A stretch of DNA of 64,000 nt, from assembly GCA_964016885.1 (NCBI GenBank), contig OZ024743.1:151652001-151716000 (forward strand), given 5' to 3'. A model generated the notes under the pieces. That model saw only the letters and a list, made by a program, of their open reading frames with translations. It made no database searches and was not told where the DNA came from. Positions 12,691 to 33,668 of the stretch are shown here, piece after piece. Origin of the DNA: Eledone cirrhosa. Taxonomy: Eukaryota. The stretch's first letter is position 1, and each line of letters begins with the position of its first letter. Position numbers and translations under genes: made by a program.

Positions 12691-12897
12691 TTATATATAT
12701 ATATATAATATATATATATACATATATTATATATATATACACATATATTATATATATATATATATAATATATATATATACATATATTATATATATATCAG
12801 GAACGATCGACTTTCGTCAAATCGGACCGAGGAAACAATGCTTTCATTGGTCCTTTCCAATTGCTAATACTATCTATCGGTCGCAACTCCAGTAGAA

Positions 12898-12990
12898 GGA
12901 GCAACGTGAAATAAAGTGTCTTGCTCAAGGACATAACGCATCGCCCGGTCCGGGGATCGAACTCACCATCTCACGATTGCGAATCAACAT
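12898..12990 (-). mobile_element. 5'-truncated SINE family B fragment
   Basis: Minus strand GATTCGCAATCGTGAGATGGTGAGTTCGATCCCCGGACCGGG...GTCCTTGAGCAAGACACTTTATTTCACGTTGCTCC. Confidence 0.8.
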
Positions 12991-13339
12991 CTCATCAGCA
13001 ATATTTACCTATCCTCGGCCTTTCTAGAGAATCGTAAAAGCACATATCGTTATATGCTTTTTCTATGAAAATTAGTAGTGGGCAGACTAATTTGCATAGA
13101 GCGTGAGTACGTACCGGTTCATCGGAGACGATAAAAACACATAACGAAACGAAATTAAATTTCGTTTCGTTTGTAACTCACTTTTGTATGACTGACGCTT
13201 AAACAATTAAGTTAAAAATGTACGCTCTATGCAAATTAGTCTGCCCACTACTAATTTTCATAGAAAAAGCATATAACGATATGTGCTTTTATGATTCTCT
13301 AGAAAGGCCGGAGGATAGGTAAATATGCTGATGAGATGT
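12987..13339. repeat. Long inverted repeat: ~118-bp arms (12987-13104 / 13222-13339) with an inner 14-bp palindrome (13143-13171)
   Basis: Arms are near-perfect reverse complements; inner AACGAAACGAAATT-A-AATTTCGTTTCGTT. Confidence 0.93.
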
Positions 13340-13368
13340 AACAACATCGAAACTAGTCCAATATTCCT
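13317..13368 (+). ncRNA. Minimal type I hammerhead ribozyme (copy 1)
   Basis: CTGATGA (13328-34), helix II GATGT/ACATC, GAAA (13349-52), palindromic helix III ACTAGT, GUC cleavage triplet (13356-58); helix I AATATG/CAATATT, which is a perfect AATATTG in the inverted arm. Confidence 0.8.
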
Positions 13369-13616
13369 GTCTGGCTTTCTGGAGAATAGAGGAAAGGTGT
13401 TTCCTCGAAAACCAGTATGACTCTAAAAACCGGTTTGTCTGTGTGTTTACATACAGAATAGCTGAACACTCACAGTAAAGTGTCCAGTGAAAAACTCGGT
13501 ACATCTACATATGTACACGTGCGTGTATTCATATGCATACTAGTATTTCAGTATACATATGTGGATGTACATTTTTAACTTAATTATACATTTTTAACGT
13601 ATATACATATATATAC

Positions 13617-20073: not shown

Positions 20074-20575
20074 ATAAGTATGTACATGTACATACATATA
20101 TGTATACAGACGTACTAAGAGTGGGAAATAAAATTTCGTTTCATTATTTCCGTTTATCGTTTTTGGTGCACCCGGCCGATTAACCCACTCGATATGCAAA
20201 TTGGCCTACTCAGCCGTTAATATGCATAAGGTAAGTATATACGTTCAACAATCCGGCAGGAAGGTATACGTTGCTGACGATAGCTAATAAGCTTGAAACT
20301 AGTACAGCGTTCCTTTGTCAGTGTTGAACAAAAGGGCAACGATGGTTGCTAAACACTGTACGGCTTAATACGGGATGTTTGTTTACAAACAGACCGAGCA
20401 TTATAATAAATGTTCGGTGAATCTATACATACATATATATATATATGTGTGTGCATGTATATATATACTACTGTACGTCTGTATACATATATGTATGTAC
20501 GTGTACATACTTATCTTTAAGTAACAGCCGTACTAAGAGTGGGAAATGAAATTTCGTTTCATTTTTTCCGTTTAT
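20074..20575 (+). mobile_element. Penelope-like/retrozyme-type non-coding element: 418-bp monomer, 47-bp partial tandem repeat, 42-bp inverted 5' segment
   Basis: Direct repeat 20111-20157 = 20529-20575; inverted repeat 20074-20115 / 20473-20514; internal hammerhead. Confidence 0.7.
20261..20315 (+). ncRNA. Minimal type I hammerhead ribozyme (copy 2)
   Basis: CTGACGA (20274-80), helix II AGCT/AGCT with a U.U first pair, GAAA (20295-98), ACTAGT, GUA triplet (20302-04); helix I ACGTTG/CAGCGT extended by AAGG/CCTT. Confidence 0.75.
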
Positions 20576-20587
20576 ATACATATATGT

Positions 20588-20659
20588 GATGTGTTGGTGT
20601 AAATGGTGGCACAGTGGTCTGGATAACCAAAGATGTGGGTTCGACTCCCATGTACATCA
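20588..20659 (+). tRNA. tRNA-like gene, pseudogene or SINE head; anticodon GGA; short variable loop
   Basis: 72-nt cloverleaf: acceptor GATGTGT/GTACATC, D stem GTGT/GCAC, anticodon loop CTGGATA, T arm GTGGG-TTCGACT-CCCAT; T5 run at 20669-20673. Confidence 0.6.
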
Positions 20660-28880: not shown

Positions 28881-29052
28881 ATATTTAATATAGAAATGGG
28901 TTCTACAGGACTAGAACTGTTTCATTCGAAAGAAATCATCAGGAAAGCCCTGATGATTTCCTTCAAATGAAACAGTTCTAGTCCTGTAGAAGCCATTTCT
29001 ATATTAAATATTTATACTCTGCTATGTATTGAGTACCTTACTTACTGTGGTT
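28881..29052. mobile_element. Palindromic element (63-bp arms 28881-28943 / 28949-29011) with hammerhead-like cores on both strands
   Basis: Near-perfect inverted repeat; each arm reads outward CTGATGA-T-TTC-loop-(G/A)AA-T-GAAAC. Confidence 0.6.
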
Positions 29053-31671: not shown

Positions 31672-33668
31672 AATAATAATGAAATTATTGTGTACAGTGC
31701 TCAGGTGCACTACAACTCATCAAAGGTGCATGTATAGTACATAGAATAATATACAAATGTCAGGAAAATGAACAGTGTATGAGTCATGATATACACACAG
31801 AATATCAGGTGTAGTGTTGGCGAATTTTGAGAAGCATGGAGGTTTTGAAAGATGCAGTGTCCCGACAGCTAACAACTTATGCAGGTAGTTTGTTCCATGC
31901 TTCAGCAAGAAATACATGTGTGCGTGTGTATGGAGGGGGGACATCAGGTGTAGTGTTGGCGAATCTCAGGGAGCATGGAGGTTTTAAAGGATGCAGTGCC
32001 TTGATAGCTAATAACTGATGCAGTAAGTTTGTTCCATGCTTCAGCAACTCTGGGCATGAAAAAATGTTTCCGAAACTCATGGGAGCTGTGCTGTTTTCTG
32101 ACTTTGTAGGCATGCCACGTGTGTTAGACACATGGAATTCAAAAAGGTGTTCAGCGTTGTTGTTGGCAAGATGGTTAATAATTTTGTGGGTGTTTACCAA
32201 GTCAGTTGCTAGACATCGGAGCTTCAATGTATCCATTCCCAGGGAAGCAAGGCGTTCAGAGTATAGTAGGCCTGATGGAGGGTATTCAGTTGGCTGCATG
32301 TCTCTGAACAGTTTCCAGGAGGTCAATGTTCTGAGCAAGATAGGGGTTCCAGACTGGTGATGCAAATTCTAAGTATGGCCACACCATAGCTATATATATA
32401 GCTTTAAATAGATAGCTGGAGAGCGGCTGACAAAGGTCTTGCTGAGTGATGCTAAGACACCCTCGGCCTTCTTGACAATTTTAGAGATTTGCTTCATCCA
32501 ACGCAAATTGCTGGTGACAGTAATGCCCAGGTCGCGTTCACAAGAAGACTTCTTGATATTAGTGTTGTGGGGGGAGTATGTGGACGCTGGGTTTTTACTC
32601 CCAAAATGCATGATGGTACACTTGTCCACAGCCAACATGAGTTTCCAGTCTAGGATCCATTGTTGCATTGTGTCCAGGTTAGATTGCAGGAAAGATCTAT
32701 AGTGTTCAGGATCTGTCCTTTTTATCTCAAGGTACAGCTTGATGTCATCTGCATATTTCAGTACTGTGGCATTCTTTAAGTTGGCATCTATGTCATTAAT
32801 ATATGCAACAAACAAAATGGGGCCAAGAACAGATCCCTGTGGTACACCAGATGACATCTCATACGGTGAGGAATGCTGTCCTAGAATTGTGCCTACCTCT
32901 CTTTGACTGAGAATAAAGGACTTCAACCAGTTAAAAACATCATCCTTCACACCCATTGCAGAGAGTTTTGCCATAAATCTTTTGTGTGGCACAGAATTGA
33001 AAGCTTTAGCAAAGTCAAGGTAAAGAACATTCACCCATGAGCCGCCATCAGTGATCCGGGTGATGTCTTCAAGAAACTCGATAAGTTGATCACAGCAGCT
33101 AGAGTTAGGGATAAATCCAAATTGCGAGGGTCGGATAAGACTGTGAGAGTTCCAAAAGTTCCAAAGTGTTTCTCTGACACAGGATTCCATCAGTTTGGCA
33201 ATGCAGCTAGTAAGACTGACTGGATGATAGTTAACAGGTGATGTGCAGTCACCCTTTTTGAACAGAAGAATGACACTGGCAGTTTTCCACTGCTCTAGAG
33301 TAGCACCGTTGTTCAGACAGAATTGGAAGAAGCATGATAGCTGGTGCAGAAGAAAGTACCCACAACGTTTGAGAAGCAGGAACGTAACACCATCAAGATC
33401 AGGAGAGGTATGGTTGTGTTTATTTTTAAGGTGGCATCGCAACATTGCAGGTGTAAATTTCATAGTTGTAATAGAATCTGATGTCAGAGGTGGTGGAGAC
33501 GGTACACTCTGGTCTTCAAGAATGAAAATGCCTGCATAACATTCAGCAATGAGTTCTGCACATTCCTTGGGGTCGTCAGTAACCTGGCTTGTGTGGGGAT
33601 TGCGAAGAGGACCAACTGGAGAGTGAGGCCTCTGCTTTGAGTGAACCTACTTCCAGAACACCTTACTG
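31672..33668 (-). mobile_element. 5'-truncated CR1-clade LINE with a duplicated 3' segment and (ATT)n tail
   Basis: RT ORF plus frameshifted C-terminus (YSERLASLGMDTLKLR); 3' block repeated at 31804-31908 and 31944-32047. Confidence 0.9.
32390..33463 (-). pseudogene. Reverse transcriptase domain of the CR1-like LINE (fragment)
   Basis: Motifs NYHPVSLTS, QFGF, YLDFAKAFNSVPH, GVPQGSVLGPILF, KYADDIKLY, ERDLGI. Confidence 0.92.

Follow-up and report, generated by a model that had tools for sequence, protein, structure and literature searches.

Non-LTR retrozymes of metazoans have been described by Cervera and de la Pena 2020 (PMC7229834) and by Li, Clavereau and Pollet (bioRxiv 10.64898/2026.07.22.740005), both cited here from excerpts. 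According to excerpts of PMC11167929, reverse transcription by an Anolis Penelope-like element (PLE) begins at two internal positions, which delimit the genomic tail. In the same excerpts, the minimal template of Anolis PAc extends from +20 to +172 of the ORF, and the hammerhead is cut at +26. That PLEs drive animal retrozymes has so far been proposed because the two co-occur and because of pLTR similarity; the insertions described here carry the PLE tail signature itself. For squid, the excerpt of PMC6962438 only counts hammerheads. Our literature search found no description of the present clade, of a covarying retrozyme fold or of tail-type retrozyme ends, and supplements and repeat databases may hold such repeats.

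The window is a stretch of 64,000 nt from contig OZ024743.1 of Eledone cirrhosa. All positions are in window numbering, and genome-wide searches were made over the 3.0-Gb assembly. An earlier note on this DNA had marked a region directly 3' of two hammerhead cleavage sites as a covarying multi-hairpin RNA domain.

Two copies of a retrozyme clade

Copy 1 is a fold-back insertion of subfamily A with a 465-nt unit (12987..13585, no strand assigned). Its antisense arm (12987-13223) is cut short within the hammerhead and adjoins another repeat, and its sense arm (13222-13585) ends at the putative reverse transcriptase (RT) start site II. Copy 2 is a complete fold-back insertion of subfamily B with a unit of about 420 nt (20074..20575, no strand assigned), and its left inverted arm is 20074-20115. 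Each copy in the window has a single hammerhead. The core of copy 1, with a short palindromic helix III, lies at 13328..13358 (+), with cleavage predicted after 13358, and that of copy 2 lies at 20274-20304, with cleavage predicted after 20304. Both cores are type I, and the hairpin region is 3' of a hammerhead in both copies. A short palindromic helix III suggests cleavage as dimers (PMC4209133, excerpt).

There are at least 1059 candidate relatives of copy 1 in the genome, the best 40 at 99-100% identity, and at least 1043 of copy 2, the best 40 at 95-100%. Units of the two types, 465 and about 420 nt long, respectively, occur in arrays both head-to-tail and inverted, and tandem periods across arrays are 465, about 420, and 466-469 nt. 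Further subfamilies are C, D (5310 pattern matches), and F (1151 candidates, the best 30 at 99% identity). The hammerhead-core pattern that they share has 39,203 intact matches in the genome, and its reversed control has 0. Full-unit alignment, on which the homology of the lineages rests, splits the units into A/D/F and B/C/G, with 59-63% identity between lineages (about 61%) and 80-96% within them. The 119 distinct monomers are 415-551 nt long, with a typical unit of 420-500 nt, and arrays on one contig exceed 30 units. The GC content of the unit is 0.36-0.37, below the 50% retrozyme criterion. The units contain no protein-coding ORF, and the frames in the flanks belong to other insertions. 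Nor is there an LTR around a unique body: units run on into the next unit or stop at two sites. The tandem units, type I hammerhead, and lack of an ORF thus fit non-LTR retrozymes as defined in the excerpts of PMC7229834 and bioRxiv 10.64898/2026.07.22.740005, and on sequence grounds we assign both copies to one young, high-copy clade of these elements. In two of the seven arrays examined (L085 and L064), two unit variants follow each other in strict alternation, a periodicity expected from copying round a dimeric circle, which unequal crossing-over could also produce.

The search for a further clade with this domain gave six candidate matches, all of which are mutated B copies, and at 28 loci with dispersed hammerheads no model match was found 3' of the ribozyme. 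The genome also contains old, dispersed single hammerhead-like cores with a palindromic helix III and without a common 3' domain, and a 104-nt tandem repeat, unrelated to the retrozyme clade, with a hammerhead core in each of its three units.

The fold 3' of the hammerhead

All 12 motifs quoted in the earlier note are present, starting at 13371, 13407, 13389, 13438, 13462, and 13479 in copy 1 and at 20319, 20352, 20336, 20376, 20394, and 20409 in copy 2. The 5' arm of the outer stem that the earlier note drew around the hairpins, which we call X (13371-13379), is part of the helix I 3' strand and its extension (13359..13385, +). In copy 1, X is predicted to pair with an upstream arm, U (13296..13319, +), with a probability of 0.99, and thereby to extend helix I of the hammerhead. 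The alternative partner, arm D (13407..13415, +), is eroding, and its pairing with X is predicted only without U (0.07-0.42). The corresponding segment of copy 2 (20244..20328, +) comprises U (20244-20264), the core, the helix I 3' strand, and X (20319-20325), followed by D at 20352-20358 (+). The predicted probability in uncleaved copy 2 is 0.74 for X:U and 0.00 for X:D, and X:D reaches 0.81 in the freed 3' product. For six subfamily monomers, in both circle and precursor, the predictions are 0.89-1.0 for X:U and 0.00 for X:D.

Variation gives the same picture. Among 39 distinct B-lineage sequences, 0 of 7 outer-stem pairs change on both sides. In the control set of units described below, the outer-stem pair is kept in 3 of 10 spread variants and 4 of 14 one-site variants, none of them two-sided. 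In subfamily F, X and U have changed together in a compensatory manner, leaving X:D with 5 of its 9 pairs. The outer stem, at a predicted 0.00 in uncleaved and circular contexts, is outcompeted by the extension of helix I, and its variation is that of a neutral sequence. Because this stem fails, with X predicted to pair with U instead, no two-sided change within lineages, and disruption in subfamily F, the flagged region is part of a conserved whole-monomer fold and not a free-standing motif.

Folding of A, B, C, and D monomers as circles gives one predicted architecture, and most further monomers show the same. The order is a long helix I, hairpin H2, a long-range stem L enclosing hairpins H3 and H4, an AT-rich hairpin and a small hairpin, and then further hairpins. 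Stem L was missing from the earlier note; the hairpins sit inside it, and its partner strand lies 180-220 nt downstream. In subfamily A its arms are GTATGACT/AGTCATAC, in B they are GTACGGCT/AGCCGTAC, and in C GTATGGCA/TGCCATAC, and the arms co-vary both between and within lineages over a span of 170-220 nt. RNAalifold recovers the stem and shows changes on both sides in 3 of its 6 pairs. The 5' arm in copy 1 is at 13415..13422 (+); its partner would lie beyond the end of the sense arm and is present on the antisense arm (13186-13193). In copy 2 the arms are at 20358-20365 (+) and 20526..20533 (+), the latter downstream of site II (about 20514) and upstream of site I (20575). The last part of copy 1 (13499..13585, +) contains the long AT-rich hairpin (13499-13570), the start of the small site II hairpin, and the junction to TA-rich DNA. 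Compared with shuffles, the local fold has z scores of −2.55 and −3.10 on the plus strand, and also −3.88 and −3.19 on the minus strand, while whole monomers give −6.3 to −10.0 (4 tested, 30 shuffles each).

H2 of copy 1 is at 13389..13406 (+). H3 (13438-13457) and H4 (13462-13487) follow within a possible three-way junction (13429..13500, +), which has a weak closing stem (13429-13436 with 13492-13500, +; 70% paired). The hairpin region of copy 2 (20335..20424, +) has H2 at 20336-20349, H3 at 20376-20391, and H4 at 20394-20417. Both partners have changed in 6 of 9 H4 pairs, 2 of 6 H2 pairs, 2 of 5 H3 pairs, and 2 of 4 pairs of the weak closing stem; these counts come from 39 distinct B-lineage domains aligned to the model and lean toward it, and the H3 count is partly alignment-dependent. 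The claim of covariation is thus strongly upheld for H4, moderately for H2, and little for H3, and falls for the outer stem. Between lineages MAFFT loses the stem register, and the pairs were therefore read by hand. The deep covariation rests on a single contrast, that of the two lineages, and the subfamily changes are not independent of one another.

An internal control is provided by 677 units, taken from 46 sites of the A lineage and 80 of the B lineage, a non-random sample of best hits and the first places on one contig. In H2, H3, inner H4, and L, the pair is kept in 14 of 23 spread variants (8 two-sided) compared with 13 of 58 singletons (Fisher p 0.002), where spread means three or more sites, singleton means one, and variants found at exactly two sites are not counted. 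Among wobble changes fixed at seven or more sites, which are non-independent events, all 5 in these stems have their G-U on the hammerhead strand, as do 2 of 8 in the outer stem. The three hairpins and the long-range stem, without the outer stem, are thus a real, selected RNA fold: the pairing kept in spread variants and the sense-strand G-U bear out selection on the hairpins, but not the discrete domain with the stem originally drawn around it.

The order of the helices is conserved across lineages. However, loops and spacing are less fixed than the earlier note had claimed: the H2 loop is GGTG, GATG, TGTG, or GTG, the H3 loop is TTTA, GTTA, or TTGA, and the domain measures 130 nt in copy 1, with 103 nt for that of copy 2. 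Likewise, the trailing TGAA is present in both window copies but is TAAA in several subfamilies. H3 varies from 5 to 10 bp, H4 has several sequences, and arms lengthen by short duplications. Folding of the junction is soft in the A lineage, with H4 predicted at 0.42-0.77.

At the gathering score, Rfam gave only tRNA-like matches and none over the flagged region; below it, there were weak miRNA-type matches on the AT hairpin. A SECIS-like reading was dropped, since the core motif is absent. With a covariance model of nine B-lineage domains, copy 1 is the second match in the window, at 22.5 bits against 11.1 for sequence only. However, unrelated DNA reached 25.7 and 26.9 bits, and this match is therefore not used as evidence.

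Insertion ends and Penelope-like elements

When array boundaries are mapped onto the unit and a 3' end is assigned to a site if it lies within 8 nt, two fixed sites account for 157 of the 188 3' ends, with 81 at site I and 76 at site II. Site I is at +301 in A, +273 in B, and +310 in C, and site II is at +227, +214, and +248, respectively, so that the sites are 59-75 nt apart. Only 3 of 53 5' ends are at either site. TA repeats flank 133 of the 157 site ends; the insertions end in (TA)n, where a target-site duplication cannot be read. Fold-backs make up 62 of the 111 insertions seen whole, with one end at each site in 42 of the 62 and both ends at one site in 0. Copy 2 fits this pattern, with 20074 at site II and 20575 at site I. 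In contigs of sequencing runs X3 and X5 there are 56 and 4 loose TA ends at site I, respectively, and X3 may be from the assembled individual.

The insertions thus combine two fixed 3' ends, an inverted, 5'-truncated arm, and a microsatellite target, which are features of the PLE type. Judged from the insertion sequences, two 3' ends in (TA)n together with fold-backs are the 'tail' signature of Penelope-like elements, which is new for retrozymes as far as the literature searched shows. Other repeats abut the two copies: a dispersed repeat, found at one further genome locus, adjoins copy 1 at 12800-12987, and a tRNA-like sequence (46.5 bits) adjoins copy 2 at 20588-20659. These are probably SINEs that share TA-rich targets.

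Intact PLE frames of 758 codons are present in the genome, with RWR, DKT, CxCx5C, CxxC, and CxH motifs that match the TA-targeting Hydra clade (PMC8557442, excerpt). Many genome copies of these Hydra-type PLEs have open 758-codon frames with RT and, at the C terminus, GIY-YIG. The retrozyme unit is not itself an autonomous PLE, as no RT/GIY-YIG ORF was found in it. In the 28 Hydra-type loci compared, the only sequences shared with the unit are TA-like stretches and one nested retrozyme. At 28942 (−) and 28950 (+) the window has a fold-back pair of a different hammerhead, which belongs to the Hydra-type PLEs. A second high-copy hammerhead element (1021 candidates) has two fixed 3' ends in TA repeats, one at about +50 and one at about +137, and forms fold-back pairs; no PLE frame is attached to it in 25 loci, and its first end weakly resembles retrozyme site I. 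It was rejected as a driver, as it has no convincing sequence in common with the unit. A 357-codon frame at 32390-33463 (−; RVT_1, E 8.7e-36) is an unrelated non-LTR retrotransposon fragment.

Function of the fold and comparison with known systems

The flagged region extends from +13 to +142, between the cleavage site and both putative RT starts, the interval equivalent to the minimal template RNA of Anolis PAc (PMC11167929, excerpt). In the folding model, stem L would bring this region next to the hairpin that holds site II. We suggest, by analogy with the Anolis element and at a probability of about 50%, that the hairpins belong to a selected whole-monomer fold that helps a Penelope-like RT to bind the RNA and to start at two internal sites. 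RT recognition would then be the likeliest job of the flagged region. Of the three functions suggested in the earlier note (RT recognition, ligation or circularisation, and stability), it is the one to which the map of insertion ends lends indirect support.

In the mechanism that we propose, the arrays would be transcribed, U would pair with X to give the long helix I, the hammerheads, probably as dimers, would cut out monomers, and a host ligase would circularise them. Stem L may close H3, H4, the AT-rich hairpin, and the small site II hairpin into one multibranch domain, adjoining the hairpin before site I. A PLE protein would nick (TA)n on both strands, and copying would proceed round the circle from site I on one strand and from site II on the other. 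Such copying from both sites would give tandem units with fold-back ends.

The putative RT starts, however, lie 70-170 nt downstream of the flagged hairpins and outside them, which counts against RT binding by the hairpins. It is possible, though we would not call it probable, that the hairpins are selected only for a compact, nuclease-resistant, ligase-ready circle that does not mispair with the hammerhead, and that RT reads only the two downstream sites. The free turnover of stem sequence, with only short loop motifs kept, also fits a generic role in stability, as do the wide variation in the lengths and sequences of H3 and H4 noted above and the strong self-pairing of the whole unit (z of −6 to −10), and the circles of animal retrozymes are generally predicted to be highly self-paired (PMC7229834, excerpt). 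Yet two lineages that are 61% identical still share the order of helices, the positions of branching, and the H3 loop region, which is beyond the needs of stability.

Less likely, X could be a switch, pairing with U for cleavage, after which D displaces U and so releases the products or holds back re-ligation. In each lineage, U and D are both complementary to X, the alignment shows two two-sided X:D differences between lineages, and X is almost invariant in the B lineage. In the freed 5' end alone, the six subfamily monomers give X:D predictions of 0.00-0.94, with 0.81-0.94 in some subfamilies. However, forcing X:D in the uncleaved window copies costs 14.6 kcal/mol in copy 1 and 4.5 kcal/mol in copy 2, two-sided X:D changes are absent within lineages, and the pairing is disrupted in subfamily F, which is young, while the commonest B form has a shortened version of it. 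The complementarity of X and D is real, and an old or minor switch is possible. Finally, we consider it improbable that the covariation is a mutational by-product, in which template switching during fold-back copying corrects quasi-palindromes without selection on RNA structure: inverted duplications are routine (62 of 111 insertions seen whole) and hairpin arms do lengthen through short duplications, but correction would not favour the hammerhead-strand G-U seen in all 5 fixed wobbles, and stem L covaries across 170-220 nt.

A bolder form of the RT-recognition reading, which we hold to be rather doubtful, is that a protein-free circular RNA parasite evolved a modular RT-recruiting domain, in which the covarying multibranch fold docks a Hydra-type Penelope enzyme and presents two starts, and an X/U/D switch times cleavage, release, and circularisation. 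If true, this domain would be the first recognition element to be defined that ties animal retrozymes to their PLE driver. With intact PLE frames in the same genome, which RT copies the retrozymes and what RNA it recognises can be tested in vitro, and the several young subfamilies are a natural series of compensatory mutations.

Among described ribozymes, Rfam Hammerhead_HH9 (RF02275) is similar in being type I with an extended helix I, and its match (13311-13380) takes in X. However, the match scores 25.7 bits against a gathering score of 52, and the family has nothing on H2-H4. Like non-LTR retrozymes, the units are short, non-coding, tandem, and high in copy number, with a type I hammerhead, GC below 50%, and a predicted self-paired circle in which the hammerhead is free to fold. 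They differ in that the unit of 420-500 nt is at or above the 150-450 range of PMC7229834 (excerpt), and in being known here from DNA alone. Undescribed in the available parts of the retrozyme papers are the subfamily-level covariation of a whole-monomer fold, the two fixed ends assigned to RT starts, the fold-back arrays, and (TA)n targeting. Unlike the PLE pLTR/tail system (PMC11167929 and PMC8557442, excerpts), the units have no RT/GIY-YIG ORF and do not match in sequence the pLTRs of those PLE-type families of the genome that we examined, and their tail is 59-75 nt rather than the 30-40 given in those papers. Like that system, they have a hammerhead followed by a structured region and two putative internal starts, ends that differ by the tail, an inverted and tandem arrangement, and AT-rich targets.
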